NCBI GenBank assembly: GCA_043822345.1
Contig: JBDRBW010000008.1
Span: 2,332 to 66,331 of the forward strand
DNA: 64,000 bases
Direction: 5' to 3'
Origin: Patescibacteria group bacterium
GTDB lineage: Bacteria; Patescibacteriota; Minisyncoccia; UBA6257; UBA11618
Shown here in pieces: positions 14,869-53,657 of the stretch (within the stretch, counting starts at the first letter, position 1; each line of letters begins with the position of its first letter). The notes beneath the pieces were generated by a model, which saw only the letters and a list, made by a program, of their open reading frames with translations, made no database searches and was not told the DNA's origin. The translations under genes were made by a program, and so were the position numbers.

Positions 14869-15928
14869 CATCCATCAGCCGATTTGGCTCTATCTGCTTT
14901 GGGCAATACCGGTGTTTTTACTAGTATTCGCTCTTTCTTGCCGAAAGTTTTATCTGTTTGACAAGCAACTGTCGCAAAAACCTTATCTCTACCAAAGAAA
15001 ATTACCGCCTTGGCGCCATCGTATTGCCAAGGCGTTGTTTTATGTTCTGGGTATGGCGATGGTGGTCGTGGCTTTAGCCGATCCCCATTATCAGAAAATG
15101 GTGCCCGAAAACATCTATAAAGGCGTGCGCATCTATTTTCTTTTTGATGTCTCCCGCTCAATGGTGATGGGTGAGGATGTTAGGCCCAGTCGAATGGCGG
15201 CCGCCAAAGAGGAAATTAGGGTTGCCTACGACCGCTTCGGCGGCGCCTATGAGGTGGCGCTTATTCCTTTTGCCGATGAAGCCAATGCTTATTACCATCC
15301 GCCGTCGTTTGATGTCCAAAACTTTTATATTGCCCTCAACGAACTGGACGAAGACACCATATCTTTGCCGGGCACTAATTTGGTGAATGCTTTTGGAGCG
15401 CTTAACCAACTAGTGGCCGATTTCGGCCTGCGTCCGGATACGGTTAATATCGTTGTTCTGCTGTCTGATGGCGGTAAAGAGAAATGGGCGTCCGCTGACC
15501 ATTTTGCTCTGCAAAAAGAAATAGACGAACTATTGAAAGCCGAGGGCCGATTCGTTATCTACGCCGTTGGTGTTGGCGGCAATCAACCGACCCCGATGGT
15601 CATCAGGGATCAGGGTGGTAATTTTGTCGGCTACCTGCGTGATGATGATACTGGACAGATTTACACATCTCAACTTGACGAAGAAACACTCAAGCTCGTT
15701 GCTCGCCGCGGCGGCGGTGAATACCAACGCTTTGAAAAGCAAGGTGAACTAAGCGCTATGCTTCAAAAAGTAATAGAAGAAAACAGCCAACTGCTGAATG
15801 TTACCTATTACCACCAAGACCAGCCGATCCGTCTCTGGTTCTTCCTCGCCGGCACTTTGATATTTTTATTTGGAGAGACATCTTTTTTAACAATAAAGAG
15901 AAAACAATATAACAATTTAACAATATAG
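14855..15928 (+). CDS. vWA-domain membrane protein (BatB-like)
   Basis: FLFDVSRSMV MIDAS motif, N-terminal and C-terminal TMs. Confidence 0.7.
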   Translation: MELFSIHQPIWLYLLWAIPVFLLVFALSCRKFYLFDKQLSQKPYLYQRKLPPWRHRIAKALFYVLGMAMVVVALADPHYQKMVPENIYKGVRIYFLFDVSRSMVMGEDVRPSRMAAAKEEIRVAYDRFGGAYEVALIPFADEANAYYHPPSFDVQNFYIALNELDEDTISLPGTNLVNAFGALNQLVADFGLRPDTVNIVVLLSDGGKEKWASADHFALQKEIDELLKAEGRFVIYAVGVGGNQPTPMVIRDQGGNFVGYLRDDDTGQIYTSQLDEETLKLVARRGGGEYQRFEKQGELSAMLQKVIEENSQLLNVTYYHQDQPIRLWFFLAGTLIFLFGETSFLTIKRKQYNNLTI

Positions 15929-15936
15929 AAATTAAA

Positions 15937-15966
15937 AAATCTCTGACAAGGTCAGAGATTTTTTCT
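15937..15966 (+). terminator. Intrinsic terminator at the end of the Bat-like operon
   Basis: Reads aatctctgac-aag-gtcagagatt followed by TTTTTT. Confidence 0.6.
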
Positions 15967-18675: not shown

Positions 18676-18720
18676 GGAGGGTTGGCAGAGCGGTTTAATG
18701 CAGCGGTCTTGCCACCGCCT
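18676..18720 (+). pseudogene. Orphan 5' half of a type-II (Ser-like) tRNA, with no matching 3' half
   Basis: GGAGGGTTGGCAGAGCGGTTTAATGCAGCGGTCTTGCCACCGC matches the 5' portion of the Ser tRNAs here (acceptor, D-arm, anticodon stem). It is preceded by an extended -10 (tgtggtataat). The hairpin repeats follow instead of a variable arm and T-arm. Confidence 0.4.
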
Positions 18721-18767
18721 TCGGCGGGGTCCCGCTTACCTTGATTTTGTAAAAGGTAATAGGCGGG
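18705..18767 (+). repeat. Two-hairpin structured repeat, copy 1
   Basis: Consensus GGTCTTGCC-ACCGCC-TTCG-GCGGGGT-CCCGCTTACCTT-(AT loop)-AGGTAGTAAGCGGG-AAAAACCGC. Four copies lie within ~700 bp. Confidence 0.6.
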
Positions 18768-18832
18768 CCACCGCCTACGGCGGGGTCCCACTTACCTTAT
18801 TTTTAAAAAAGTAGTAAGCGGGAAAAAACCGC
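18768..18832 (+). repeat. Two-hairpin structured repeat, copy 2 (fused to copy 1)
   Basis: Reads ccaccgcctacggcggggtcccacttacctt-atttttaaaaa-agtagtaagcgggaaaaaaccgc. Confidence 0.6.
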
Positions 18833-18842
18833 ATTCGTTATC

Positions 18843-19088
18843 ATGTATAGTGTTTATATTCTGAAAAGTTTGCACCATAATAGATATTATGTTGGCCATA
18901 CTGAAAATATTGTCAAAAGATTGATCCAACACAATAATGGCAAAGTACGTTCCACAAAAGGATATCGACCTTGGCGGTTGGTTTATCAGGAAAACTTTTC
19001 TACCAAACAACTTGCTTACAGAAGAGAATTACTCATAAAATCTTACAAACACGGAGAAGCGTTCAAAAAGTTGATAGAGGAGGGGTGA
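18843..19088 (+). CDS. GIY-YIG nuclease-family protein (small stand-alone, UPF0213/YhbQ-like)
   Basis: YSVYILKS...RYYVGHTENIVKRLIQHNNG...RPWRLVYQE is a GIY-YIG core. 81 aa. Confidence 0.65.
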   Translation: MYSVYILKSLHHNRYYVGHTENIVKRLIQHNNGKVRSTKGYRPWRLVYQENFSTKQLAYRRELLIKSYKHGEAFKKLIEEG

Positions 19089-19104
19089 TAAATAATATCA
19101 GAGC

Positions 19105-19186
19105 GGAGGGTTGGCAGAATGGCAATGCACTGGTTTTGAAAACCAGCGGGCGCAAGCCCTTACAGGTTCGAGTCCTGTACCCTCCG
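19105..19186 (+). tRNA. tRNA-Ser (anticodon TGA), type II
   Basis: Reads GGAGGGTTGGCAGAATGGCAATGCACTGGTTTTGAAAACCAG-CGGGCGCAAGCCCTTAC-AGGTTCGAGTCCTGTACCCTCCG. Flanked by an inverted repeat (atatcagagc / gctctgatat). Confidence 0.85.
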
Positions 19187-19204
19187 CTCTGATATTATTT
19201 GCAT

Positions 19205-19275
19205 GGTCTTGCCACCGCCTTTGGCGGGGTCCCGCTTACCTTATTTTTAAAAAAGTAGTAAGCGGGAAAAACCGC
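19205..19275 (+). repeat. Two-hairpin structured repeat, copy 3
   Basis: Same consensus as copy 1. Runs directly into the orphan tRNA 3' half. Confidence 0.6.
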
Positions 19276-19318
19276 TATGTCCGAAAGGGCATCGTGGGTT
19301 CGAATCTCACCCCCTCCG
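19271..19318 (+). pseudogene. Orphan 3' half of a type-II tRNA (anticodon-stem 3' strand, variable arm, T-arm, acceptor)
   Basis: Reads ACCGC-TATGTCCGAAAGGGCATC-GTGGGTTCGAATCTCAC-CCCCTCC-G. No 5' half lies upstream, only the repeat. The 3' flank ctctggtattatt matches the flank of tRNA-Ser(TGA). Confidence 0.45.
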
Positions 19319-19337
19319 CTCTGGTATTATTCAAAAC

Positions 19338-19411
19338 GGTCTTGCCACCGCCTTCGGCGGGGTCCCGCCCACCTTAATTTTTAAAAAAAGGTAGTAGGCG
19401 GGAAAAACCGC
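19338..19411 (+). repeat. Two-hairpin structured repeat, copy 4
   Basis: Reads ggtcttgccaccgccttcggcggggtcccgcccacctt-aatttttaaaaaa-aggtagtaggcgggaaaaaccgc. Confidence 0.6.
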
Positions 19412-21636: not shown

Positions 21637-21770
21637 AGTTTATTTGGAGGAGATAGACAATATTTTATTGCTAAATTGCTTTATTGCTAGATTGCTCATC
21701 CTCTCTAGTTCTCCCTTAGAGAGGGAGAAAAAACAGTATAACAATACAGCAATATAACAATAAAAAAACT
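21637..21770. repeat. Intergenic repeat family 3 copy, in the divergent comF/pilM promoter region
   Basis: Reads ttgctaaattgctttattgctagattgc ... ctcccttagagagggag ... aaaaaacagtataacaatacagcaatataacaataaaaaaa. ORF-track entry 21569-21757 is a spurious translation of it. Confidence 0.5.
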
Positions 21771-21788
21771 ATGATATAATTTAATTAT

Positions 21789-24586: not shown

Positions 24587-26296
24587 ATGACCAACAAAGA
24601 GCTTTTAGACAAAATAGTGTCGGCCGATCTTTTGTCAGCTCAACGGGCTGACAAATTACTAGCAGAGGCCGAGGTTACCCACCAAAGCGTGGAGGATTTG
24701 CTATATGACCGGCGGTTGGTGGAGGAGATAGAAGTTGCCAGAATCAAAAGCAAGCTACTCGGCATTCCCTTTAAAAAAGTTAATATTAATAACATCAACG
24801 ACGAAGTTTTAGGGCTATTGCCCGAAGAGACGGTTACTAATTACAAAGTAGTGCCGTTGGGCAAGGAGGATAAGATGTTGGTTGTCGGCCTGGTTCATCC
24901 CGATGACCGGCGCGCCCAAGACGCCCTTCGTTATATTGCTAAGCAAAAAAAGATGAGTTTGGGGGTGTACCTGATAACTCCCAGCGATTTGGAGTTGGTA
25001 ATGCGCCGTTATTCGCCATTAAGCAGTCAGATTGAGGCGGCGGTGCGTTCCATACAGGTGAAACCAGGACGGGGCGAGGGGACGAAAAAAATTGGATTAG
25101 AGCAGATGTCCGAGGTTTCCGAGGAGGCGCCGATTATTAAAATCGTCGCCTCAACCTTGAAAGAGGCGGTCAGTATTGGCGCCTCCGATATTCATATTGA
25201 ACCCCAGCGGACTCGACTTCGGTTTCGCTTTCGGATTGATGGTATTTTGCGCGAGGAGCAATCCTTGCCCGCTGAATTGCACTCGGCGATTATCTCCCGC
25301 GTTAAAATTCTTTCCAACCTAAAAATTGATGAAAATCGTGTTCCCCAGGACGGCCGTTTTCGCACCGAAATTTTTGGTCGTGAAATTGATTTTCGTGTTT
25401 CCTCCTTTCCCACGCCATCGGGCGAAAAGGTGGCGATTCGCGTCCTTGACCCCAAAGTGGGTTTAAAACAACTAGATGAATTGGGGGTGAGCGGCCAATC
25501 CGAAGCGATTATTAAAAAAGGAATTGAAGAACCTTTCGGTATGATTTTAATTACCGGCCCTACTGGTTCCGGTAAAACAACCACGCTCTATGCCTTGATG
25601 CAGAAGCTCAATAAAGAAGATGTTAATGTTGTCAGTTTGGAGGATCCGGTGGAGTATACAATAGAAGGCGTTAACCAATCACAGGTACGGCCGGAGATCG
25701 GCTATACCTTTGCTTCTGGTCTGCGCCAGATTTTGCGCCAGGACCCTGACGTGATGATGGTCGGCGAGGTTCGCGATCGGGAAACCGCCGACTTAGCGGT
25801 ACACTCGGCGCTGACCGGCCACATTGTGCTCTCTACCCTGCATACTAATAACGCTGTCGGCGTTATTCCGCGCTTGATTGATATGGACGTTGACGCTTTT
25901 CTTCTGCCTTCGGTTTTGAATCTGATGGTCTCCCAGCGGCTGGTTTCCAAGCTTTGCCAAGAGTGTAAACAACAGGAGTCGCCGTCGGAAACAATTCAAG
26001 GGATTATTGAAAAAGAGGTTGGCGGTATGGTTAAGGGTCCCTATCAGGTTTGGAAGGCGTTGGGTTGTAAGGCGTGCAATAACAAGGGACGCAAGGGGCG
26101 GGTTGGCCTCTTTGAAGTTTTGCAGATGACGCCGCAGTTGGCCGATATCATCAACACCCAACCCACTGAAAATAAAATTCTGGAGGAAACTAGGCGGCAG
26201 AAGATGGTTACCCTCCGCCAGGACGGCATCCTCAAAGCGCTAGAGGGTCTAGTTAGTATTGAAGAAGTCCTCCGCGAAACCGCCGCATCTACGTAA
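24587..26296 (+). CDS. pilB: Type IV pilus assembly ATPase PilB (GspE family)
   Basis: N-terminal GSPII_E-like domain, Walker A GPTGSGKTTT, Asp/His boxes, and a C-terminal tetra-Cys (CQECK...CKACNNKG). Confidence 0.9.
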   Translation: MTNKELLDKIVSADLLSAQRADKLLAEAEVTHQSVEDLLYDRRLVEEIEVARIKSKLLGIPFKKVNINNINDEVLGLLPEETVTNYKVVPLGKEDKMLVVGLVHPDDRRAQDALRYIAKQKKMSLGVYLITPSDLELVMRRYSPLSSQIEAAVRSIQVKPGRGEGTKKIGLEQMSEVSEEAPIIKIVASTLKEAVSIGASDIHIEPQRTRLRFRFRIDGILREEQSLPAELHSAIISRVKILSNLKIDENRVPQDGRFRTEIFGREIDFRVSSFPTPSGEKVAIRVLDPKVGLKQLDELGVSGQSEAIIKKGIEEPFGMILITGPTGSGKTTTLYALMQKLNKEDVNVVSLEDPVEYTIEGVNQSQVRPEIGYTFASGLRQILRQDPDVMMVGEVRDRETADLAVHSALTGHIVLSTLHTNNAVGVIPRLIDMDVDAFLLPSVLNLMVSQRLVSKLCQECKQQESPSETIQGIIEKEVGGMVKGPYQVWKALGCKACNNKGRKGRVGLFEVLQMTPQLADIINTQPTENKILEETRRQKMVTLRQDGILKALEGLVSIEEVLRETAAST

Positions 26297-26385
26297 TAGT
26301 GTCATCCCGCACTATAGTGTCATCCCGCACTATAGTGTCATCCCGCACTATAGTGTCATCCCGCACTATAGTGTCATCCCGCACT
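26296..26385. repeat. Tandem array of 5 x 18 bp (atagtgtcatcccgcact) immediately after the pilB stop
   Basis: Five perfect direct repeats. Each unit is a mini-hairpin containing the family-1 terminus gtcatccc. ORF-track entry 26259-26513 is a spurious translation. Confidence 0.8.
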
Positions 26386-26478: not shown

Positions 26479-26769
26479 ATGAAAATCTACTACGTCTATA
26501 TTTTAGCAAGTAAAAGACGTGGCACACTTTACGTCGGTGTAACTGATTATTTAATGCGGCGAGTGTATCAACACAAACATGGTTTAGTAGAGGGCTTCAC
26601 TAAAAAATACAAAGTGAACAGATTGGTTTATTATGAGCAAACAAATGATGTAATGAGTGCTATTAACAGAGAGAAGCAGTTAAAGAGGTGGCGACGACAA
26701 TGGAAAATAGAATTAATAGAAAAAGATAATCCAGAATGGAAGGATTTATACGAAGAGCAGTTTAAATGA
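26479..26769 (+). CDS. GIY-YIG nuclease-family protein (second copy)
   Basis: IYYVYILAS...TLYVGVTDYLMRRVYQHKHG...NRLVYYE; 96 aa. Confidence 0.65.
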   Translation: MKIYYVYILASKRRGTLYVGVTDYLMRRVYQHKHGLVEGFTKKYKVNRLVYYEQTNDVMSAINREKQLKRWRRQWKIELIEKDNPEWKDLYEEQFK

Positions 26770-26877: not shown

Positions 26878-28185
26878 ATGAAAAAGCAAAACGCTTTTTG
26901 GTTGATGTTTGCCATTATCATGGTTGGTTTTGTTTTAATTTGGGTTGGCGGTAGTTTTGGCTCCACATCGCAACCAAGGGTTCAAGCTGCTTCCTGTCTC
27001 GATCCACCAACTTGTCCTGACCCAATGACTTCGGCTTGTGTGCGAATTGAGCCCTCGGGTTCAATCTGTACTACTGCTAGTGGTTGGCGTAGTCCAAGTA
27101 GGGCTTGGTGCGGTGAATTAATGAGCGGTGGTCACTACGAACTTACTAATGGTGGTTGTGCCGCTCCGGGATTTGAAAGTTGCTCCGCTTGCACAGGAAG
27201 TAACTGCTATTCCCTTTCTTATGACTGTGCTGGCAGTACGCCAATACATAAGCCAGTAGTAAAATGCACCGAATGTTACAAGGGTCTGTGCGGAGAAGAG
27301 CCCCCTTGTGGTAATGGCAGGTTAGAACTAGAAGAATGTGAAGAGTGTGATGACAGCAATACTATTAGTGGCGATGGCTGTAGTGACAGGTGTGAGATTG
27401 AGGGCACCGATCCAGTTTGTGGCAATAGCAAAAGAGAGGGAGATGAAGAGTGTGATGGAGACGATATTGCTGATTGTCCAAGGCCCGATTGTGAATGCAC
27501 GATTAGATGTAACGATGATTGTGTATGTGTTTATGATCCGATTGAGCCAGAGTGTGGCAACAGCATTGTTGAACCGCCAGAGCAGTGCGACGACGGCAAC
27601 ACTGACGACACTGATGGTTGTATGAATTGTATGATACAAAAAGGAAATTGTGAGCCGTCAGGGCTTTGTGGCAATGGAGAAGTGACGCCACCCGAGCAGT
27701 GTGAAGGTAGTGGAAGTTGTGAGAGTGTTTGTGTGGGTGATAAAGAGGGATGGATAGAGTATTGTGGTGATAAGCCTCTAGGAGCCTGCTCAGGAGCGCA
27801 CTGTGAGGTAGATGGCGCTAGTTGTATTCCCACATTTGACGAGGATGGAATGGATAATTTCTGTCAAGGTATACCGAGCTGTACTGGAACTATTTTTTGT
27901 AAATTAGCTGGAGCAGGAGCGACCTGCAACCCCGATTCTTGTATGTGTGAACCGCCAGTAACCGAATGTGGTAATGGTATTACAGAACCACCAGAACAAT
28001 GCGACGATGGCAATAATATTGACGGCGATGGCTGCGGTAGCACCTGCGTAATAGAGGGTGGCGGTGGAGATTGTGGCGGTGTTACTTGTGGGAGTGGGGA
28101 GAAGTGTTGTATTTGCGATCCGTTTCATGGAATGGACTCATACTGCACTACTATCAGCGACTGCATCTGTCCAATTTCCGATTAA
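26878..28185 (+). CDS. N-terminally anchored cysteine-rich repeat surface protein (Myxococcus-type CxxC-x-PPEQCDDGN-x4-DGC repeats)
   Basis: Start MKKQNAFWLMFAIIMVGFVLIWV (TM anchor). Multiple ~38-aa repeats of the form CGNG..EPPEQCDDGNT.DGDGC..C. Confidence 0.7.
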   Translation: MKKQNAFWLMFAIIMVGFVLIWVGGSFGSTSQPRVQAASCLDPPTCPDPMTSACVRIEPSGSICTTASGWRSPSRAWCGELMSGGHYELTNGGCAAPGFESCSACTGSNCYSLSYDCAGSTPIHKPVVKCTECYKGLCGEEPPCGNGRLELEECEECDDSNTISGDGCSDRCEIEGTDPVCGNSKREGDEECDGDDIADCPRPDCECTIRCNDDCVCVYDPIEPECGNSIVEPPEQCDDGNTDDTDGCMNCMIQKGNCEPSGLCGNGEVTPPEQCEGSGSCESVCVGDKEGWIEYCGDKPLGACSGAHCEVDGASCIPTFDEDGMDNFCQGIPSCTGTIFCKLAGAGATCNPDSCMCEPPVTECGNGITEPPEQCDDGNNIDGDGCGSTCVIEGGGGDCGGVTCGSGEKCCICDPFHGMDSYCTTISDCICPISD

Positions 28186-28196
28186 TAAATAAACAT

Positions 28197-29840
28197 ATGA
28201 AATCAATTCCACTAAAAACGAAATTATCCAATCAAGCTCTATTTTGGGTGGTTTTTGTTGTGGTGGTTGTTGGATTAATATTGTTATTTGCTTTTAGTAA
28301 TAATTGGCGAGCGCTGGCGGACACGCAATATTGCACCGAAGATGGCTCTGGTGGTGTTTTTACTAATGCGCTTGGTTGGGCATCGCATGCCACTCCATTT
28401 TGTTGCGCTGGAAGTATAAGTTCGTGTATTTCGGTTCCTAGTTGCAGTGGTAGCGGTTGTTATCTCCATAATTTTTCTTGTATGGGAGACACACCAGTAA
28501 GCGCAGAAGATCCAATAAGTTCGTGTGGTAATGGAATTTGTGGTAATAGCACTCCAGAACCACCGGAGCAGTGCGACGATGGCAATACTGTGAGTGGCGA
28601 TGGCTGTAGTAGTACTTGTACTAATGAAGGGGGAGGAGGTTGTGGTAGTTGTGGTGATAGGGCGTTGAATTTGGGTGAGGGATGTGATGATGGCAATATT
28701 GTTGACGGTGATGGTTGTAGCAGTATTTGTGAGGATGAAGATGAAGTTTGGTCTACCAGCGAAGAATGTCAGAATGCCAATTACCCGCTCTGTTGTCCTT
28801 ATAACCCAGTAGTAAGTGGATTTACTCCTCTCGCGGGAACCGATTGCAGTGATCTTCCATTCCCTACCTGTTTTAATTGTGTGTTTGATTTATATCAAGA
28901 GACATGTGAACCGGGAATAGATGAAACGGCTTGCGCTGATTATGAGAGATGTATTTTCTGTAGTTGTACGCCTACGGGTACTCCTCACCCCGGTTTTTGT
29001 GGTGATAGTATTATAGATGAAGGTGAGGAATGTGATGATGGTCAGTATTGTGAGAATGGAACACCTTGTACAGAAGAGGATGATAGAGAATGTCTTGGTA
29101 TTGGTGATGGATTGTGCAAACCTCGCGGTGGCGATGGTTGTAGTTATTATTGTCAAATCGAAGGCGGTTTTTGTGGCGATGGCATTTTAGAGCCGCCGGA
29201 ATTTTGTGAAATTGATGCGGATTGCGCAATCTTTGGTTCTTCAAAATGCAAGAGCGATTGCACGTGCGATGAAATACCACCCGATGAATGTTTATATTGC
29301 GGTGATGGAATAGTAAACTTGAGTTTGGAGCAATGCGATGATGGCAATAATACCAACGGTGATGGCTGTAGTTATAATTGCAAGATAGAGACCGGTCCCA
29401 TGTGCGTAATCGGCGATGGCGTCATCAATCCTCCCGATGAAAATTGTGATACCGATGCGGATTGTGGAGAGTGTGTTCCTCATGAGGACTGCTTTGGTTT
29501 CATGTGCGAAGGATTAGATGCCGATAGTTGTGCGCATACAGAGTGTGTACCGGGAACATCTGGCAGTAGTTGTCCTAAAGTATGTACTCTTGATGGTGGC
29601 TACTGTGAACCCAGTTCCGGTCTAATAGATTACTGTACAGGATTAGAACCATCAGAGTGTAGCGGCTACAATCCAGTGGTAGGGGGGCCAAAAAATCCAT
29701 ATTGCGCAGGTAGTGGGGCAGGAACTTGTTACCCCGACACCTGTAACTGCGACTTGCCATTAGGCACGCCAGGGCAGATATGGGACAGTATTATTAATAA
29801 GACCATGAAATCATATCTTAATAATTATATTAATGAGTAA
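28197..29840 (+). CDS. N-terminally anchored cysteine-rich repeat surface protein, paralog
   Basis: Start MKSIPLKTKLSNQALFWVVFVVVVVGLILLF. The N-terminal ~145 aa are near-identical to the protein at 30721. Several CDDGN..DGDGCS repeats. Confidence 0.7.
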   Translation: MKSIPLKTKLSNQALFWVVFVVVVVGLILLFAFSNNWRALADTQYCTEDGSGGVFTNALGWASHATPFCCAGSISSCISVPSCSGSGCYLHNFSCMGDTPVSAEDPISSCGNGICGNSTPEPPEQCDDGNTVSGDGCSSTCTNEGGGGCGSCGDRALNLGEGCDDGNIVDGDGCSSICEDEDEVWSTSEECQNANYPLCCPYNPVVSGFTPLAGTDCSDLPFPTCFNCVFDLYQETCEPGIDETACADYERCIFCSCTPTGTPHPGFCGDSIIDEGEECDDGQYCENGTPCTEEDDRECLGIGDGLCKPRGGDGCSYYCQIEGGFCGDGILEPPEFCEIDADCAIFGSSKCKSDCTCDEIPPDECLYCGDGIVNLSLEQCDDGNNTNGDGCSYNCKIETGPMCVIGDGVINPPDENCDTDADCGECVPHEDCFGFMCEGLDADSCAHTECVPGTSGSSCPKVCTLDGGYCEPSSGLIDYCTGLEPSECSGYNPVVGGPKNPYCAGSGAGTCYPDTCNCDLPLGTPGQIWDSIINKTMKSYLNNYINE

Positions 29841-30702
29841 ATTAAATCTGCAAAAAATGAAATTAACCAACCAGCCGTTGTTTTGGCTAATATTCATTAT
29901 AATAGTCATTGGATTAGTTTTGTTGTTTACTATAGACGTTTTTGGAATTACTGGTCGTCAGACAAGAATTTTGGCTGGTGGATATTGTGGTGATGGAAAC
30001 GTTGATACTGGCTTGGGCGAACAGTGCGATGATGGCAACAGAATTATAGGCGACGGCTGTGATAACTGCCAAATTACAGGTGGCGGTTATTGCGGAGATG
30101 GTAATTTAGACGCCGGTGAAGAATGTGACGATGGCAATACTAATAATAATGATGGCTGCGCCGACTGTCGCAGGCAAACTCCAGGATGCGTTATTAGGTG
30201 TGGCAATGGAGAAGTGACGCCACCCGAGGAGTGTGATGATGGTAATCTCACTAACGGCGATGGCTGTAGTAGTACTTGTCAAAACGAGCGTCCCAGTCAG
30301 TGTGAATATCCAGTGTGTAGCGATATTAAAGATTGTGAAAAGTGTAATAGCTACGACGCCTGCCGTTGGGGAACACAGATAGGTGTTTGTTTGTTTATGG
30401 ATAAGTGTGAGCCGCCTCTAGTAGAGAGTATAAATGGTTGCGTGCCTTGTGGGGGTGTGGAGAGATGCGAGCCTGGCTCCTGTCCAAGTGGTTATTCTTG
30501 TTGCCTCGCTTCTAGTGGAGTCAGTGAGTGCGTCCTGGGTTTTGATTGTGGCGGCTTTATTCCTTGCGGCGACGGTCCCCCGTGTATGGCTGCAACAGAG
30601 GAGTGTTGTATGACGGCAACAATGGGGCCAACCTGCATACCCAAAGGAGCGCATTGTGAAAAAAGCGGACCCGGATCTCCTATTTTCTGGAGATGGAATT
30701 AG
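29833..30702 (+). CDS. N-terminally anchored cysteine-rich repeat surface protein, short paralog
   Basis: MSKLNLQKMKLTNQPLFWLIFIIIVIGLVLLF, followed by CGDGN..EQCDDGN repeats. Confidence 0.65.
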   Translation: MSKLNLQKMKLTNQPLFWLIFIIIVIGLVLLFTIDVFGITGRQTRILAGGYCGDGNVDTGLGEQCDDGNRIIGDGCDNCQITGGGYCGDGNLDAGEECDDGNTNNNDGCADCRRQTPGCVIRCGNGEVTPPEECDDGNLTNGDGCSSTCQNERPSQCEYPVCSDIKDCEKCNSYDACRWGTQIGVCLFMDKCEPPLVESINGCVPCGGVERCEPGSCPSGYSCCLASSGVSECVLGFDCGGFIPCGDGPPCMAATEECCMTATMGPTCIPKGAHCEKSGPGSPIFWRWN

Positions 30703-30720
30703 GGGTAATTAATAAAAAAG

Positions 30721-33700
30721 ATGTTTAACAAATCCAACTCACTAAAAACAAAATTATCTAATCAAATGCTTTTTTGGGTGGTTTTTGTTGTGGTGGTTGT
30801 TGGATTAATATTGTTATTTGCTTTTAGTAATAATTGGCGAGCATTAGCGGACACGCAATATTGCACCGAAGATGGCTCTGGTGGTGTTTTTACTAATGCG
30901 CTTGGTTGGGCATCGCATGCCACTCCATTTTGTTGCGCTGGAAGTATAACTTTGTGTATTTCGGTTTCTAGTTGCAGTGGTAGCGATTGCTATCTCCATA
31001 ATTTTTCTTGTATGGGAGATACACCAGTAAGCGCAGAAGATCCAATAAGTTCGTGTGGTAATGGAATCTGTGGCAACAACAGCGTTGAGCCGCCAGAGCA
31101 GTGCGACGATGGTAATACTACTGATGGCGATGGATGCAGTAGCGCTTGTACTAATGAAGGGGGAGGAGGTTGTGGCGATTGTGCAAATGATAGCGACTGC
31201 GTTGATATGGGGATGGGGGATCCTTCTAGTTCTTGTTATCTAGGTTTTGGCGGTAGTTCGTTATTAATGGTGGAGTGCGTAGTATCAACTGGGGAATGTG
31301 TTCTTGGTGAATGTGATAGGAATGAGGATTGCGGTATGTATGTTGATGGCGTGGGTTGGGCTCCTGGGCTTTGTGATTTTAGACAGAGGCCTTTTCCCGA
31401 TATCGAATCTGAGCGATCGGAAGGTTTATATGGTATATGCGCTCCCGATGCTCCTTGTTGCATGGGGAAAGAAGCGGGATACGAAGAATTTTGTTTTGGG
31501 TTTATAGAACCTGATCAATGTTCAGAAGCTCATTTACCAGGTAGTTTCGATTATCTTTGTCAATGGATTTGCCCAGTCTGCGGCAATGATATTTTAGAAC
31601 CGCCTTATGAACAATGCGACGACGGCAATACTACCAACGGCGACGGCTGTAGTTCTACTTGTCAAATCGAAGGCGGAGATATTTGCTGTGTACCTAATCC
31701 TGATTGCGGTGGTCTTGCCTGTGATGGTCTTAGTATAGAAGATTGTGAAAATTCTAAGTGTATTTCAGGCACTATTCCTGGTGGTGATTGTGTGCGGTCG
31801 TGCGCCTACTCTAGTGGTGAGTGTAAGCCCAGCGCCGGCGCAGGTGATCATTGTAAAGCATTATCAGATTCAGCGTGTGAAGCTGATCCCTATTGTAAAC
31901 CCGACCCTGACGCGGATTGTGGTTCTCCAAACTGCGAGGGTTGCGGTGATGGTGAAGTTAATGATCCAAAGGAAGAGTGCGACGACGGCAATAATGTAAG
32001 CGGCGACGGTTGTAGTTATAATTGCAAGATAGAAACTGGCGGTATGTGTGGCGATGGCATAGTAACTCCTCCTGAGGAGTGCGATGATAACAATAATATA
32101 GATGGAGATGGTTGTGCCGCGGATTGTACATATGAAGAGTGCCGCTTCTGTGGCGATGGAACCGTAGACTCTGATATTGGCGAGCAGTGTGAAGGTAGTG
32201 GAAGTTGTGAGAGTGTTTGTGTGGGTGATAAAGAGGGATGGATAGAGTATTGTGGTGATAAACCCTCAGGAACCTGCTCAGGAGTGCACTGTGAGGTAGA
32301 TGGCGCTAGTTGTATTCCCACATTTGACGAGGATGGAATGGATAATTTCTGTCAAGGTATACCGAGCTGTACAGGAACTATTTTTTGTAAATTAGCTGGA
32401 GCAGGAGCGACCTGCAACCCCGATTCTTGTATGTGTGAACCGCCAGTAACCGAATGTGGTAATGGTACCGTGGACCCAGGCGAGGAGTGCGACGACGGCA
32501 ATCATAATAGCGGCGACGGTTGTAGTTATAATTGCAAGATAGAAACTGGCGGCATGTGCGTAATTGGCGATGGGATTATTAATACTCCCGATGAAAATTG
32601 TGATGGTGATGGGGATTGTGCTTCTGTTGGTGGTTGTGTAGCAAATCCTGAGAAGAATTGGCAGGATTGGTGTCAATGGCTTAGTGGGCTTCTCGGTGGT
32701 GGTTGTGCGGCGATTGGACCAGAGTGTCAATTAGAAGGCGGTTTATGTGTGCCTGGGCCAGTGTTAGACGACCCCGAAGAAAGACAATCCGCTTGTGATT
32801 TGGCGGGTAGTTTATCAGAGATGAGATGTCGTGATGCTTATCATGCAGGTGACGCGGGACCAGATGATGGAGGATGTAAGTGGGTTGAAGAAGGAGGCGG
32901 TGGCATCTGCAACCCCGATTCTTGTATGTGTGAAATACCACCAGCCGAGTGTGGCGATGGCATAGTAACTCCTCCTGAGGAGTGCGATGATAACAATAAT
33001 ATAGATGGCGATGGCTGTAGCGCTACTTGTCAGATTGAAGGCGGTATGTGCGTCATTGGCGATGGGATTATTAATACTCCCGATGAAAATTGTGATGGTG
33101 ATGGGGATTGCGGGGGAATTTGTGTATCTTCGCCGTTAGAGTGGCAAGATTTTTGCCACATGGAACCCATAGATGATTGTACCTCATTCTATTGTAAAGT
33201 AGATGGCACGGAATGTGTCCCTGCATTTGATGACGAGGGAATGGAAGATTATTGTTCGATCAGAAAAATTGAACCAAGGTGTTGGAATATATTTTGCAAA
33301 TGGGCTGATAAGAGTACCTGCGACCCCGATACCTGTATGTGTGAACTTCCAGAGCCTGAATGTGGCGACCATGTAATAGACCCACCCGAGCAGTGCGATG
33401 ATGGTAATCGCACCGATGGTGATGGTTGTGATAAGAATTGTAAAGATGAAACGGGTAAAAAAGTATGCGGCGATGGTGAAGTCAATCAACCCGAAGAGGA
33501 GTGCGATGAAGGTACTGCTGATACAGCGACCTGTGATAGAGATTGTACCCTCGTGGCTTGTGGTGATAATCATGTAAATACTGTGGCTGGCGAGCAGTGT
33601 GATGATGGAAATACCAACAATAACGACGGTTGTAGCGCCTCCTGTCAGTGGGAGTCGGCGACTGGCTGTATTCCTCTTCGAGCAAATCAAAACGAAACAG

Positions 33701-34431
33701 CTGATGTGATAAATATAGTTTACGTCGCCTTTAACTACAGCTCTCCTGCTGATTTAGTTCCCAAAGCTACTCAGTGGATGAATGCATTATTAAGTGTTGA
33801 TCCTTTTATTGCCGAAAACCAGAAACTTCAATTTTGGGTAGCCGACACTATGCCGCCAGCAACACCTGGCGCTGGTGGAGGTTGTTGGGATAAATGTGGT
33901 GGTGGTTCGCGTGGAGCATATAGTTCGTATTGCCCGACATTGCCTAATCGAATCCATACTGTTGGCTGTAATTACACTTGCCGTAGCGCGGCATGGACTA
34001 ATGGTGGACCTATTTATATGGAATCTGACGAACCAAGAATATTGTATGTATCTACTCATGAATTTGGCCACGCCCTTGGTGGATTAGCTGACGAGTATGT
34101 AGAGCCTATTAAAGGCGACCAGTGGAGAGCTCCTAACTGTGCAAATAATAATGCGCAGGCCAATACTTGGTGGGGTTCACGAATAGGAACTGGTGATGTG
34201 GGAATGTTTGAAGGTTGTTCTTATGTGATGGATAATCGTCGACCTAAGGCTAACGGACTAATGAACGGTGATACGAGTCTTCCTTATCCATTTACTACTG
34301 ACTACGGCGATATTAGCGTAGAAAGACTTATAGAGCGACTCGCCCCTTATTCTGGAAATCCTTTGCTAACATTTCTTACAAGATCGTTATTTGTATTTAA
34401 ACCTTTCGAATTTATTTTCAAATTACTATGA
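30721..34431 (+). CDS. Giant (1236 aa) N-terminally anchored cysteine-rich repeat protein with a C-terminal M64-like zinc metallopeptidase domain
   Basis: Has more than 10 Myxococcus-type Cys repeats. The C-terminal ~250 aa contain VSTHEFGHALGGLADEY, an HExxH...DEY arrangement resembling the IgA-peptidase M64 family. Confidence 0.7.
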   Translation: MFNKSNSLKTKLSNQMLFWVVFVVVVVGLILLFAFSNNWRALADTQYCTEDGSGGVFTNALGWASHATPFCCAGSITLCISVSSCSGSDCYLHNFSCMGDTPVSAEDPISSCGNGICGNNSVEPPEQCDDGNTTDGDGCSSACTNEGGGGCGDCANDSDCVDMGMGDPSSSCYLGFGGSSLLMVECVVSTGECVLGECDRNEDCGMYVDGVGWAPGLCDFRQRPFPDIESERSEGLYGICAPDAPCCMGKEAGYEEFCFGFIEPDQCSEAHLPGSFDYLCQWICPVCGNDILEPPYEQCDDGNTTNGDGCSSTCQIEGGDICCVPNPDCGGLACDGLSIEDCENSKCISGTIPGGDCVRSCAYSSGECKPSAGAGDHCKALSDSACEADPYCKPDPDADCGSPNCEGCGDGEVNDPKEECDDGNNVSGDGCSYNCKIETGGMCGDGIVTPPEECDDNNNIDGDGCAADCTYEECRFCGDGTVDSDIGEQCEGSGSCESVCVGDKEGWIEYCGDKPSGTCSGVHCEVDGASCIPTFDEDGMDNFCQGIPSCTGTIFCKLAGAGATCNPDSCMCEPPVTECGNGTVDPGEECDDGNHNSGDGCSYNCKIETGGMCVIGDGIINTPDENCDGDGDCASVGGCVANPEKNWQDWCQWLSGLLGGGCAAIGPECQLEGGLCVPGPVLDDPEERQSACDLAGSLSEMRCRDAYHAGDAGPDDGGCKWVEEGGGGICNPDSCMCEIPPAECGDGIVTPPEECDDNNNIDGDGCSATCQIEGGMCVIGDGIINTPDENCDGDGDCGGICVSSPLEWQDFCHMEPIDDCTSFYCKVDGTECVPAFDDEGMEDYCSIRKIEPRCWNIFCKWADKSTCDPDTCMCELPEPECGDHVIDPPEQCDDGNRTDGDGCDKNCKDETGKKVCGDGEVNQPEEECDEGTADTATCDRDCTLVACGDNHVNTVAGEQCDDGNTNNNDGCSASCQWESATGCIPLRANQNETADVINIVYVAFNYSSPADLVPKATQWMNALLSVDPFIAENQKLQFWVADTMPPATPGAGGGCWDKCGGGSRGAYSSYCPTLPNRIHTVGCNYTCRSAAWTNGGPIYMESDEPRILYVSTHEFGHALGGLADEYVEPIKGDQWRAPNCANNNAQANTWWGSRIGTGDVGMFEGCSYVMDNRRPKANGLMNGDTSLPYPFTTDYGDISVERLIERLAPYSGNPLLTFLTRSLFVFKPFEFIFKLL

Positions 34432-38348: not shown

Positions 38349-38427
38349 TCTAACGCGCCGGGTCAGACTCGGCGCGTTTATTTTTTTATCCACAGAGTTG
38401 TTTGTGGTACACTTAAATCACAAAGCA

Positions 38428-42841: not shown

Positions 42842-43351
42842 ATGAAAACCCTATACCCTAAACCCTATACCCTAAACCCTAAAAATGGTTACATTCTTGT
42901 GGAATCGGTGGTGGCGATGACGATAGTTGTTGTCGGTCTTTTGGGCATCTTTTCTTTACTTTCCCAATCACTAAGCTTGAATCGGGTGGTGGGGGATAGA
43001 TATGTGGGCACTTACTTGGCGGCCGAGGGTATTGAGGTGGCGAAGAATATTATTGACAATAATATCGTCAACAGCCGCCCTTGGAACGCCGGTTTTAGCA
43101 ACGGCTCATTTGAGGTTGATTTTGATAGCTTGAGCTTGGAAAGTAATCTTAACCGCTACATCAAGCTTGACTCGCCTAATGGCCGTTATGGTTATCGCGA
43201 TGGCGCCGACACTCGTTTCAAAAGAACGATTAAGATTGAGTTATTAGGTAGCGGTGAGGAAATCAAGGTTAATTCTGTTGTTAAGTGGCTTAGCCGTGGC
43301 GAAGCCGACTTTAAGGTCGATTTAGAAGACCACTTCTTTAACTGGCGTTAA
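42842..43351 (+). CDS. Minor pilin / pseudopilin (leader MKTLYPKPYTLNPKNG|YILVESVVA)
   Basis: Prepilin motif. The leader is encoded by CCCTAAA/CCCTATA simple repeats. Confidence 0.6.
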   Translation: MKTLYPKPYTLNPKNGYILVESVVAMTIVVVGLLGIFSLLSQSLSLNRVVGDRYVGTYLAAEGIEVAKNIIDNNIVNSRPWNAGFSNGSFEVDFDSLSLESNLNRYIKLDSPNGRYGYRDGADTRFKRTIKIELLGSGEEIKVNSVVKWLSRGEADFKVDLEDHFFNWR

Positions 43352-43860
43352 TGATCACAAAAACACAAAAACACAAAAACACCCGTGGCTTCACTATGAT
43401 CGAATTACTGGTTGCTACCACTCTTTTTGTGGTGGTGATTGGCATTGCTTCAGGTCTGTTTATCCAATCATTGCGTAGCCAGCGGGCGACGATGGCGCTG
43501 ATGGCCGCCAACGATAACGCCAGTTTAACTTTAGAGCAGATGTCGCGGGAGATTCGCATCGGTTCAATGTTTTCCACCAATAGCGATGGCACGCAGTTGA
43601 GTTTTACCAGTCAGCGCTCTGGCGCGGTAATTTACCGCTTTGACGACGCTAATGGCTTGATAGAAAGAAACGGCATCGCGCTTACTAGTGACAATGTTGA
43701 AGTCGTTTATTTATATTTTGATTTGATGGGCGAGGAGTTGGGCGATGGCCAGTCAACGCGCGTGACTATTCGTCTGGGAGTGAGCGCTAATGATGAGCGC
43801 GCTCAAGATATTGTTACTCGTTTACAAACAACAGTTAGTTCCCGTCAACTTGACACTTAA
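43351..43860 (+). CDS. Minor pilin / pseudopilin (leader MITKTQKHKNTRG|FTMIELLVA)
   Basis: Prepilin motif. The leader is encoded by ACACAAAAAC repeats (family-2 element) flanked by a direct ATGATC repeat. Confidence 0.6.
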   Translation: MITKTQKHKNTRGFTMIELLVATTLFVVVIGIASGLFIQSLRSQRATMALMAANDNASLTLEQMSREIRIGSMFSTNSDGTQLSFTSQRSGAVIYRFDDANGLIERNGIALTSDNVEVVYLYFDLMGEELGDGQSTRVTIRLGVSANDERAQDIVTRLQTTVSSRQLDT

Positions 43861-43862
43861 TC

Positions 43863-43945
43863 ATGAAAACACAAAAACACAAAAGCACCCGGCCTTCGGC
43901 CTCAAAACACATGAATAATTGTTTTCGTGTTTTCGTGTTTTCGTG
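43863..43945. repeat. Family-2 element (ACACAAAAAC direct repeats, GGCCTTCGGCC hairpin, inverted TTTTCGTGTTTTCGTG repeats)
   Basis: Read directly. Related copies lie at 43351-43395 and 50950-51033. Confidence 0.6.
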
Positions 43946-43965
43946 TTTTCGTGAACAAGGGCAGG

Positions 43966-44336
43966 TGATGTTACTGACGGTGCTAATAATCTCCGGCACA
44001 ATTTTAGGTACCACCACTCTGGCGGGCTTACTGATGCTCAATCAGATTCGGCAGGCGACCAATGTAATGTATTCCACACAGGCGATTTTTGCCGCCGAGG
44101 CGGGAATGGAGTGGCAATTTTATAATTTACTTAAAGATTCCACCTATCCCGAACCGGAGCTGGAAAATGCCGATTTTGTTACCAAACAGGTTTTTGGCGA
44201 TGAGTTTTTGGAATTTCACTCTGTCGGTTGCGCCGGCTTTGACCGCCGAAGCCTTGGCGAAGGCGGTTCCAGTCCTTCAACTTGCCCCCGTCCCATTAAT
44301 CGCTCCCTACAGGTGTTTTTGGAGTTGAGGACTTGA
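43966..44336 (+). CDS. Pilin-like/PilX-like hydrophobic N-terminus protein (start inferred downstream of the repeat)
   Basis: MLLTVLIISGTILGTTTLAGLLML, with no canonical G|F..E site. The ORF-track start at 43863 translates the repeat. Confidence 0.3.
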
Positions 44337-44339
44337 TGA

Positions 44340-44590
44340 CACCGCCGCAGTTGGTAATTCATTTAACGACCACTTCGATTACTAATAAAACTAACTTCGC
44401 TCCGAATAATTTTATCAAGAAAACGAAAAACTCGACCACATACTTAAATATCAGCGATCGCTGATATTTAAGTATGTGGTGCTTAAACAGTTTGGTTTTC
44501 TAAAATAAAATTATTCTCTACTCGTTAGTTTTATAAGTAACTGCGTTTCGCTTTTAGTCTTTTAAATGAATTACCAACTGCGGCGGTGTT
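44340..44590. mobile_element. MITE-like element: 28-bp perfect terminal inverted repeats enclosing ~195 bp that include a 44-bp perfect palindrome
   Basis: TIR acaccgccgcagttggtaattcatttaa / ttaaatgaattaccaactgcggcggtgt. Internal palindrome ccacatacttaaatatcagcgatcgctgatatttaagtatgtgg (44437-44480). Confidence 0.6.
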
Positions 44591-44607: not shown

Positions 44608-44636
44608 TTGACAAAAACACTATTATTTGTTATAAT
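44608..44636 (+). promoter_or_regulatory. Consensus sigma70 promoter (TTGACA, 17 bp spacer, TATAAT)
   Basis: Reads ttgacaaaaacactattatttgttataat, just upstream of the 44675 gene. Confidence 0.55.
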
Positions 44637-44674: not shown

Positions 44675-45082
44675 TTGAAAATTTTGCAAGGGAGAAAGAA
44701 GATGCTAGAGAAGACGAAGAGTGGTAATGGTGGAGCGACAAGTACTGGGATGCTCACCTGTTTTGTTGGTACCGCAATGCTGCTGCTAGTGTTGTTTATT
44801 GCCATGTCGGTGCAAATCTGGGAATCGCGAAAAGTCATTGACAGCAACAACCAGCAGGCGACCAGCGTGGCTATCAATCCCGACGGCACCGGCACAGGCG
44901 TTATCCGCTTCAAATTTCAGGTGGATGACCCCGAGCGGTTCAACTGCGCCGTCTTGGAGGCGTTGAATAGCCGTCTGGGAGCAGGCGCGGTATCCGATGG
45001 TCCCAAGATTGATCTGGGCGACATTGAGCCGCTTCAACCCTTACCGCCGCACGAAGACGCAAGCGCGAAGCAGAACGAGTAG
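44675..45082 (+). CDS. Hypothetical membrane protein (135 aa; alternative start at 44702)
   Basis: Single TM (LTCFVGTAMLLLVLFIAM); no domain recognised. Confidence 0.4.
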   Translation: MKILQGRKKMLEKTKSGNGGATSTGMLTCFVGTAMLLLVLFIAMSVQIWESRKVIDSNNQQATSVAINPDGTGTGVIRFKFQVDDPERFNCAVLEALNSRLGAGAVSDGPKIDLGDIEPLQPLPPHEDASAKQNE

Positions 45083-50766: not shown

Positions 50767-50952
50767 ATGAATATTGAGAAGATCAAATCTTTTCTTCAAG
50801 AATCAAAAAAAGAATTCAGGCGAGTCAACTGGCCGACTTATCAAGAGACAGTGCGGTTAACGATTATCGTAGTTGCTATGTCCCTATTAGTCGCCGCTTT
50901 TCTCGGTTTGTTTGATTTTATTTTTCTTATCGGATTAGAATCTTTACTATGA
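50767..50952 (+). CDS. secE: Preprotein translocase subunit SecE
   Basis: 61 aa, single C-terminal TM, conserved position before nusG. Confidence 0.65.
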   Translation: MNIEKIKSFLQESKKEFRRVNWPTYQETVRLTIIVVAMSLLVAAFLGLFDFIFLIGLESLL

Positions 50953-51033
50953 TTACGAAAACACGAAAACACGAAAACACGAAAACAACGGCGCTTTTGT
51001 GTTTAGGCCGAAGGCCGTATGTTTTTGTGTTTT
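50950..51033. repeat. Family-2 element between secE and nusG
   Basis: Reads atgattacgaaaacacgaaaacacgaaaacacgaaaaca...ggccgaaggcc...tgtttttgtgtttta. It overlaps the secE stop codon. Confidence 0.6.
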
Positions 51034-52078: not shown

Positions 52079-52213
52079 AGCGGATATAGCCCTCAGGAAC
52101 CGCGGTCCGATTGCTCCAGCGGAAATCGGCCGCTTGGCTCTCGGCGAATTTCTCTCGCAAGCTCGAGACCAAGCAAATTCGCCTCCGAGACATTCCTTCG
52201 GGCTATATCCGCT
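52079..52213 (+). ncRNA. Structured RNA element downstream of rplK: a 13-bp closing stem enclosing two imperfect hairpins, candidate 3'UTR/terminator or cis-regulatory RNA
   Basis: agcggatatagccc ... gggctatatccgct closes ~110 nt containing hairpins. A weak T-run lies 8 nt downstream. No rplA follows. Confidence 0.35.
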
Positions 52214-53170: not shown

Positions 53171-53629
53171 ATGAATCTTTGCCCAAGAAAAAGCGTTGGC
53201 GCTATAATTACAGACGACGAAGGCAAGTATCTTTGTCTTTATCGCAAAGGTAAAGACGAAAACGATCCTACTAAGGGATTGGCTTTTGTAGCTGGTCATC
53301 TTGATTGGGTTGATGGCGAAAAAACTAAATTAGAATATCCGAAAACCGCGCTAGTGAGAGAGGGAGAGGAAGAGGTTGGTGTAAAGATTAGGTCGGCTCG
53401 CTTAGCCCTTCACGAAACCTACCCCAATCCTTGCGGCAAAGGATTTGATACCCACGAATGGTTTGTTTATTGGGTGACGAGTTATGAATGTCAACCAATA
53501 AATTTGGAACCGGGAAAACACGAATGGATTAGATTTCTCACCGCTTATGAAATTGCAGAATTTGTGGGACGCGGCGATTGCGACCCTGCTTGGTCGAAAC
53601 ACATCTGGCCAGCGCTCGATTTAGCGTAA
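53171..53629 (+). CDS. NUDIX hydrolase
   Basis: Nudix box REGEEEVGVKI; start at the RBS-supported MNLCPRK. Confidence 0.65.
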   Translation: MNLCPRKSVGAIITDDEGKYLCLYRKGKDENDPTKGLAFVAGHLDWVDGEKTKLEYPKTALVREGEEEVGVKIRSARLALHETYPNPCGKGFDTHEWFVYWVTSYECQPINLEPGKHEWIRFLTAYEIAEFVGRGDCDPAWSKHIWPALDLA

Positions 53630-53657
53630 ACGGTCGCCTAAGGCGACCGTTTTTAGT
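53627..53657 (+). terminator. Intrinsic terminator aaacggtcgcc-taa-ggcgaccgttt + T
   Basis: Perfect 11-bp stem. Confidence 0.6.

Follow-up and report, generated by a model that had tools for sequence, protein, structure and literature searches.

A 251-bp foldback element of MITE-like structure between a type IV pilus cluster and the next promoter in a Patescibacteria genome

In the stretch of Patescibacteria DNA analysed here (64 kb, referred to below as the window) a non-coding foldback element of 251 bp occupies the space between the last gene of a type IV pilus cluster and the promoter of the following gene. The palindrome is real and highly non-random: its fold is statistically significant, it sits exactly between stop codon and promoter, it is absent from the corresponding site in four relatives and it is unique in the data searched. 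We consider an orphan (single or low-copy) MITE-like foldback insertion to be the best single account of it, with a probability of about 45%. The element would then have arrived by insertion, and this insertion would have been a transposition; any terminator or insulator activity would be secondary and is unproven.

According to this account, MITE-like foldback DNA with perfect 28-bp ends would have entered the spacer of about 20 bp that separates the pilus stop codon from the next promoter, and would have done so in this lineage only. The element itself encodes nothing; any present effect would depend on the pilus operon mRNA including it as its 3' end. The transcript would zip into a hairpin of about 100 pairs with a G+C-rich base, which would attenuate read-through into the downstream genes and protect or mark the 3' end, for instance as a target of RNase III.

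Structure and position of the element

The PheS protein encoded in the window is 100% identical to NCBI MFH1759102.1 (locus tag ABH822_00890), and the source of the DNA is a Patescibacteria MAG. Among the 5.8 billion sequences searched, the next-best PheS and PilD proteins present only about 60% identity, and no close relative was found among them. Upstream of the element lies a type IV pilus super-cluster of about 22 kb, entirely on the plus strand, which extends from PilM at 21.8 kb to 44.3 kb and includes genes for two ATPases, PilC, the major pilin, PilD and four minor pilins. Its last minor-pilin gene (43863 to 44336, plus strand), the orthologue of which is also the last cluster gene of the relatives, finishes with the TGA codon at 44334-44336, and the element begins 2 nt beyond. 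On the other side, 18 nt past the element, a TG-extended consensus sigma-70 promoter, TTGACA-17-TATAAT (12/12), was identified at 44608 to 44636 of the plus strand. It drives an ORFan gene of 126 aa (44702 to 45082, plus strand) with one predicted N-terminal membrane helix, for which no homologue besides itself was found; pheS, pheT and gyrB come next. The direct flanks are GACTTGATG on the left and TTATAATAT on the right. The location between a pseudopilin cluster and a textbook promoter, as described in the original prediction, was therefore confirmed.

Inside the pilus cluster, cysteine-rich proteins with DUF4215 repeats (589, 289 and 1236 aa) are encoded at 27300-34431, between the PilB- and PilT-type ATPases; the DNA of this block is highly repetitive, and the block is absent from two of the relatives used below (L068 and L070). 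Five perfect tandem copies of the 18-nt sequence ATAGTGTCATCCCGCACT (26296-26385) are placed directly 3' of the PilB-type ATPase gene and a short way upstream of a 96-aa GIY-YIG ORF (26479-26769).

The whole element (44339 to 44589, not assigned to a strand) is bounded by terminal inverted repeats (TIRs) of 28 nt. The left one, ACACCGCCGCAGTTGGTAATTCATTTAA (44339 to 44366, plus strand), has its outer 12 nt G+C-rich; the right one (44562 to 44589, minus strand) is its perfect complement and is continued on the plus strand by TTTATAAT, with 5 T in 8 positions. All 28 of the 28 positions are identical between the two, as had been claimed, although the coordinates first given for the element were too high by one. 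The TIR 28-mer occurs at these two sites only in the 64-kb window, even when 3 mismatches are allowed, and no match was seen in 100 dinucleotide shuffles. The description of the segment as non-coding and AT-rich also stands, since the longest overlapping ORF has 48 aa and the G+C content is 34%, against 44% for the window.

In the middle of the element a perfect palindrome was found at 44435 to 44480 (no strand assigned), with ACCACATACTTAAATATCAGCGA and TCGCTGATATTTAAGTATGTGGT meeting at the centre GCGATCGC. A palindrome of 44 bp had been reported here; it is present, but its true extent is 46 bp and the 44-mer is the inner part of it. Between the TIRs and the centre there are further inverted blocks, all collinear: a sub-terminal one of 17 nt (44379 to 44395 with 44524-44540, 94% matching), an inner one of 12 nt (44404 to 44415 with 44505-44516, 100%) and shorter ones, none of them assigned to a strand. 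TIRs plus an internal palindrome is therefore correct as to both parts but incomplete, the whole 251 bp being a continuous nested palindrome. When the arms are aligned against each other, the element is a single imperfect palindrome, its arms 119 and 132 nt long, in each of which the outer 28 and the inner 23 nt are perfect (51 positions), whereas the middles (68 and 81 nt) match in blocks only, with several indels between them. This contrast between perfect outer and inner positions and a block-wise middle suggests a constraint on the ends, such as would apply if a transposase bound them.

Folding of 291 nt of RNA gave -119.8 kcal/mol for the plus strand and -125.5 kcal/mol for the minus strand (z = -15.7 and -15.8), and with DNA parameters -75.8 kcal/mol (z = -15.0); none of 200 dinucleotide shuffles folded as stably as the element. 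Taken alone, the element forms one hairpin on either strand, with 93 pairs and -113.9 kcal/mol on the plus strand and 100 pairs and -124.8 kcal/mol on the minus strand. The central palindrome as RNA has a 21-bp stem closed by a GAUC loop (-32 kcal/mol). The number of G-U pairs differs between the strands (3 against 0), the minus strand giving the better fold; we rejected this asymmetry as a sign of the functional RNA strand, the difference being too small.

Relatives, synteny and signs of mobility

The corresponding loci of the relatives (L068/L069, L070, L071 and L072) were reached through PilD, and in them the order of the pilus cluster is conserved; the search for synteny through PheS revealed no conserved region upstream. 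The orthologues of the last minor pilin are 59-60% identical and have the C-terminus ...NRSLQ(L/V)F... in common. In L070 the orthologous stop codon is followed by 22 nt and then by TTGACA-17-TATAAT, in L068 it overlaps TTGACT-17-TATTTT, and in L072 the orthologous last gene overlaps ligA. No long palindrome or inverted repeat was found at the orthologous site in any of the four relatives. When exactly 44339-44589 is removed in silico, what is left is the stop codon, 20 nt and TTGACA-17-TATAAT. Since this removal restores the stop-to-promoter spacing of the relatives, the arrangement reads as an insertion; judged from these comparisons, the element looks like a discrete, lineage-specific insertion with its boundaries at the ends of the TIRs.

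For the comparison with related genomes for an empty site, which had been proposed as a check, this is the nearest equivalent to be had, and a weak one. The four relatives do lack the palindrome and the promoter, where present, is 0-22 nt from the stop codon; nevertheless these relatives are distant (about 60%), their intergenic DNA cannot be aligned with that of the window and their downstream genes are different. With protein identity of about 60% and other genes downstream, the match in spacing could be a coincidence.

The different downstream genes also bear on how the element might have come about. In the relatives the pilus cluster is followed by ligA-gatC-gatA, in the window by the ORFan, pheS, pheT and gyrB, so that the element marks a synteny breakpoint relative to the L068-L072 loci. 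It could be the neutral by-product of a rearrangement, an inverted duplication or template switch at the breakpoint which has since partly decayed. The element is placed exactly where synteny with the relatives ends, and a gapless central palindrome is the outcome of foldback duplication. Nevertheless, uniform decay cannot leave 51 perfect positions in each arm beside middles of 68 and 81 nt that match block by block, and many rearrangements are expected at such a distance, which makes the coincidence with a breakpoint weak evidence. We consider this origin quite improbable.

We find it extremely improbable that the element is an artefact of assembly, whether a chimeric foldback or the false joining of two loci at a repeat. 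The sequence is that of a MAG, the element coincides with the break in synteny, and palindromic artefacts do occur, for example a perfect palindrome with 66-nt arms near the end of contig L007. However, the element is internal to a contig of 67.7 kb, and its arms differ by several indels, unlike those of chimeric foldbacks. Gene orientation and cumulative GC skew are unbroken across it, and Harrisonbacteria-like proteins are among the closest relatives on both sides, at about 54-61% identity.

Two of the loci of the relatives contain other features of their own. In L068, the segment past the last pilin gene (11797-12000) may be a small RNA gene, having a promoter-like site, some 150 unannotated nt and then a clean intrinsic terminator (CCCCGTTTCGC...GCGAAGCGGGGTTTTTTT); no Rfam match was obtained for it. 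L072 has perfect 20-nt inverted repeats (ACCCCGCACCTTT...) at 6899-7022 and 8320-8383, the right arm of which encodes the prepilin leader/cleavage motif KGAGFT of two pilin genes, with the left arm 24-84 nt upstream. They may form a hairpin that masks the coding starts of the pilins, or be a substrate for recombination.

Returning to the insertion that we favour, the usual signs of transposition were looked for. No target-site duplication was found for lengths of 2-10 nt at offsets of 0-3, and no TA duplication is present at the ends of the element. Target-site duplications may decay with age. Further copies were not detected in the 64-kb window, where sensitive local BLAST against the masked window returned chance matches of 9-14 nt only. 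Neither a transposase nor an integrase nor a resolvase/recombinase domain (tyrosine or serine) was found in any ORF of the 64-kb window; the sole small nuclease-like genes there are two GIY-YIG ORFs, 18-25 kb from the element.

Searches in larger collections gave a similar picture. The TIR 22-mer had no match in GTDB representative genomes, the TIR 20-mer none in JGI metagenomes, and IMG/VR contained neither of these nor the central 26-mer. A blastn search against phages gave no match, and the two 45-nt matches obtained with plasmids (E = 0.06) were discarded as noise. A pattern of paired termini (11 nt + 181-241 nt + 11 nt) returned 58 genome and 3 viral matches, all of them G+C-rich and without extension of the repeat, which were rejected as chance.

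Two suggestions of the original prediction can be answered from these results. The further copies and target-site duplications that it named as a test were not found in the 64-kb window, where the element has a single copy and no duplication beside it. Its non-autonomous transposon is upheld in the MITE-like shape and the insertion-like context but not in the rest, the window having neither a second copy nor a transposase; mobility of the element is unsupported. Moreover, a simple MITE model leaves the perfect 46-bp palindrome at the centre unaccounted for.

Prokaryotic MITEs have been described as shorter than 500 bp, AT-rich and intergenic, with TIRs of 4-30 bp and transcripts that form a very stable stem-loop (PMC10969869). 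The present element has 251 bp, no coding capacity and TIRs of 28 bp, all within those bounds; a target-site duplication, and in the 64-kb window a cognate IS or transposase with matching ends, are the MITE features that it lacks. No paper on MITEs in Patescibacteria/CPR was found in the literature searched.

Transcription, termination and inversion

Any role as a terminator has to be seen beside the terminators of the same genome. The canonical ones (38352-38378, 53628-53652 and 58362-58387) have G+C-rich stems of 9-12 bp, loops of 3-8 nt and long T runs, and no such terminator separates the element from the end of the pilus operon. The base stem of the element is G+C-rich (CACCGCCGCAG/CUGCGGCGGUG) and is followed by UUUAUAAU; together with its tail it satisfies the 5-T-in-8 rule of our terminator scan, the T-tail being weaker than those of the clear terminators of the genome. 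On the plus strand the scan did not call the element, the "loop" of which is a structured insert of 195 nt. The central hairpin was called on the minus strand only, where it has a T-rich tail (CGAGTTTTTCGTTTTC / CGAGTTTTTCG, T5); no minus-strand promoter was found right of the central palindrome. Inside the element there is one weak promoter-like site, directed rightward, at 44484-44511 (9/12).

By the folding model, the element, once transcribed, would certainly be a very stable 3' structure, and its hairpin, zipping from the tip during transcription, could attenuate read-through. Perfect duplexes of 28 bp and 21 bp are long enough to be potential RNase III substrates.

These properties are also those of an indigenous RNA hairpin, selected and elaborated in place where the pilus operon ends, to terminate transcription, to stop 3'-exonucleases or to be processed by RNase III. 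The element does lie at the exact operon boundary (2 nt past the stop codon and 18 nt before the promoter), and its G+C-rich base with the sequence that follows fits as well. Such an origin agrees with the single copy in the window and with the lack of a target-site duplication and of a transposase nearby, and selection for pairing at particular positions would give what is seen, perfect stems of 28 bp at the base and of 21-23 bp at the tip on either side of a bulged middle. However, the hairpin is absent from the site in four relatives, where the promoter comes directly past the stop codon, and the terminators normal to this genome are short and very different. Moreover, the GAUC loop is itself palindromic and the centre is a gapless palindrome of the DNA, neither of which is required by selection on RNA. 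Nor is there a clear strand preference: no promoter was detected on the minus strand, yet its fold is the more stable one (-124.8 against -113.9 kcal/mol). We regard this origin as rather unlikely; since the element is unlike the genome's own terminators, a foreign origin is favoured over a tailored terminator.

The gapless centre could instead act at the level of the DNA, as a cruciform or a large symmetric protein site that regulates the adjacent promoter or marks a site of recombination. The perfect palindrome of 46 bp with AT-rich arms, 128 bp upstream of a very strong promoter, would suit such a role. In contrast, no IHF, DnaA or attC-type motif was found in the element, an operator of 46 bp far exceeds the typical sites of dimers, and the motif does not recur in the window. 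The search for Fis gave nothing useful, and no correctly placed attC pair (RYYYAAC 5' and GTTRRRY 3') was found, the sole GTTRRRY match being on the minus strand at 44361-44367. The cruciform-forming regulatory element proposed in the original prediction gained no positive support from this search for recognisable protein-binding motifs, and we hold a DNA-level action to be very improbable.

The 20-nt core of the central palindrome was found in 7 metagenome contigs, each with a different longer palindrome or different flanking arms, and one of these is a textbook bidirectional terminator composed of A-tract, palindrome and T-tract. Homology through this core was rejected: we judged the sharing to be chance among abundant hairpins, which is a judgement made without a computed chance expectation, and on the same terms it stands against a conserved DNA site. 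In one G+C-rich metagenome, two contigs (L064, ~9280-9460, and L067, ~6130-6300) have in common a repeat of about 130 bp around a perfect 38-bp palindrome which contains the same 20-nt core, again judged a coincidence with no computed expectation; the L064 repeat has an additional outer inverted repeat.

Other functions were considered and discarded. An origin of replication was rejected, as there are no DnaA boxes and no turning point of the cumulative GC skew at 44 kb. A retron, a T-box or a leader function was likewise rejected, with no reverse transcriptase downstream and no Rfam match. At gathering and permissive thresholds Rfam returned only generic hairpin matches similar to miRNA precursors, far below the gathering scores.

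Many tandem tracts with a period of 8 nt were observed in the window (43346-43393, 43852-43899, 43920-43951, 50952-50991, 2865-2990, 15890-15940 and 21659-21777), with units AAACACAA/AAACACGA, TGTTTTCG, AACAATAT and ATTGCTAT, at or just inside the 5' ends of genes. In two minor-pilin genes such tracts encode the leader (MITKTQKHKNTRGF..., MKTQKHK...). The 5' part of ORF 43863-44336 contains (TGTTTTCG)x4, an insert that the orthologues do not have. Since the frame would shift with each 8-nt unit gained or lost, a pilus protein may be subject to phase variation by strand slippage.

Phase variation at this locus, suggested by the slippage-prone 8-nt repeat of the neighbouring pilin gene, would also be in agreement with an inverton. 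In that case the 28-bp repeats would recombine and the 195-bp core would flip, moving the central hairpin and its T-tract to the other strand and so switching on or off either transcription beyond the pilus operon or an internal promoter. The size and the length of the inverted repeats are in the range of invertons, the element lies beside surface-structure genes, and the core is asymmetric, with T5 past the central hairpin on the minus strand only and the rightward promoter-like site described above. Nevertheless no tyrosine or serine recombinase was found in the 64-kb window, the core is so largely palindromic that its inversion would change little, and the consensus promoter of the downstream gene lies beyond the repeats. 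We give very little credence to this reading.

A more speculative idea is a functional "super-hairpin" switch particular to this lineage instead of a dead transposon: either an invertible or cruciform insulator, by its orientation or extrusion controlling read-through from the 22-kb pilus cluster into ORFan-pheST-gyrB, or a long dsRNA precursor of small RNAs. Together with the 8-nt repeats it would form a second layer of phase variation; we think it hardly probable.

Other repeats and comparison with known systems

The window contains a REP-like family with the palindromic core GAAGRATCTTTWAAAGATYCTTC, present in 7 copies per 64 kb (14065, 17214, 22926, 23589, 45196, 46387 and 53108). Its modules have 23-nt cores and a total of about 60-90 nt, and they usually come after a second hairpin (GCCGAGTYTGACTCGGC) or GTCATYCTGAG and before GTTCAGRATGAC. 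The copies are mostly placed in short spacers just 5' of start codons, such as those of pheS and pheT, and two of them supply the start codon itself, as the ATG in their right arm. Since this family shows 7 copies, multi-copy elements are easy to see in the window. The 251-bp element has no similarity to the family beyond 12-nt chance matches.

In Harrisonbacteria-like relatives, L071 (2872-3013 and 4088-4236) and L001 (734-982 and 9078-9208), we observed multi-copy, TIR-bounded elements of about 130-150 bp which fill the spacers between stop and start codons, with TIRs CGAAGTAATCGCGAA... and TCCCTCACCCTTRAAG.... The right arm in L001 is G-rich and Shine-Dalgarno-like, and it stops at the start codon of pheT. 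Because relatives carry such multi-copy intergenic elements, the clade can be said to host small interspersed palindromic repeats, of which the 251-bp element would at best be a low-copy one.

Several unrelated structures were also identified in the window. The acceptor stem of tRNA-Ser(tga) (19105-19187) is extended by a perfect 14-bp inverted repeat, and part of the tRNA 3' half is found again at ~19290-19331. Around an 81-aa GIY-YIG ORF (18843-19088), at 18711-19404, there are four copies of a 61-nt two-hairpin module (GCCACCGCCTTCGGCGGGG...CCCGCTTACC...), an arrangement suggestive of a tRNA gene at which integration or duplication has occurred repeatedly. Directly 3' of rplK, a G+C-rich segment of 135 nt (52079-52213) is bounded by a 21-nt inverted repeat (90%) and resembles a structured RNA, for which Rfam offered nothing at the gathering threshold. 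A perfect gapless palindrome of 36 bp (7546-7581), composed of TGTCGACTATAGTCACGG and CCGTGACTATAGTCGACA, is located in a divergent intergenic region and may be an operator. Finally, the gene for DnaE (DNA polymerase III alpha; 58391-62665, minus strand) has an intein, with an Intein_splicing domain at residues 613-979.

Patescibacteria/CPR genomes are tiny and are usually regarded as poor in mobile DNA. If the element is a MITE, it would be among the very few small mobile repeats described in them, and its position shows how such an insertion can part an operon from a promoter that would otherwise follow directly. With a single orphan copy and no demonstrated activity, its value is mainly descriptive, and the unrelated families of palindromic intergenic repeats, along with the 8-nt tracts at gene starts in this genome and its relatives, may be of broader interest than the element itself.

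Among known systems, invertons typically lie beside surface-structure genes. The likeness is in inverted repeats of tens of bp around a segment of about 200 bp next to such genes, and the difference is in the recombinase not found in the window, the nearly palindromic core and the lack of a strong internal promoter. With Rho-independent terminators the element has in common a G+C-rich base of the stem, a T-rich stretch directly after it and a position at the end of an operon; it differs from them in the 195-nt structured insert that takes the place of the loop and in the weak tail TTTATAAT.

ERIC, REP and BOX-RUP-SPRITE repeats are also imperfect palindromes in transcribed intergenic spacers, some of the SPRITE being terminator-like, but they are defined as multi-copy families. 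The Correia repeat-enclosed elements (CREE) of Neisseria have ends of about 26 bp and a length of about 100-155 bp. As in the present element, inverted-repeat ends enclose a short core, and the elements are found beside genes which are often pilus-related; the CREE transcript can be bound or cut by RNase III and neighbouring expression can be influenced (PMC2649163). In contrast, CREE occur in hundreds of copies with a TA duplication, an IHF site and promoters at the ends, none of which was found here, and there is no sequence similarity.

The element was also compared with QMITE2 of Coxiella burnetii, which is likewise short, non-coding, AT-rich and intergenic, with TIRs of 23-29 bp against 28 bp here, and which forms one stem-loop of about -113 kcal/mol as calculated by its authors (PMC10969869), the values for the present element being -114 to -125 kcal/mol. 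QMITE2 is multi-copy and has direct repeats of 7-9 bp (PMC10969869), whereas the present element occurs once in 64 kb, has neither direct repeats nor sequence relatives and contains a perfect 46-bp palindrome at its centre. On these comparisons, we would place the element among the MITE-like or foldback intergenic palindromes, as a new and orphan member.
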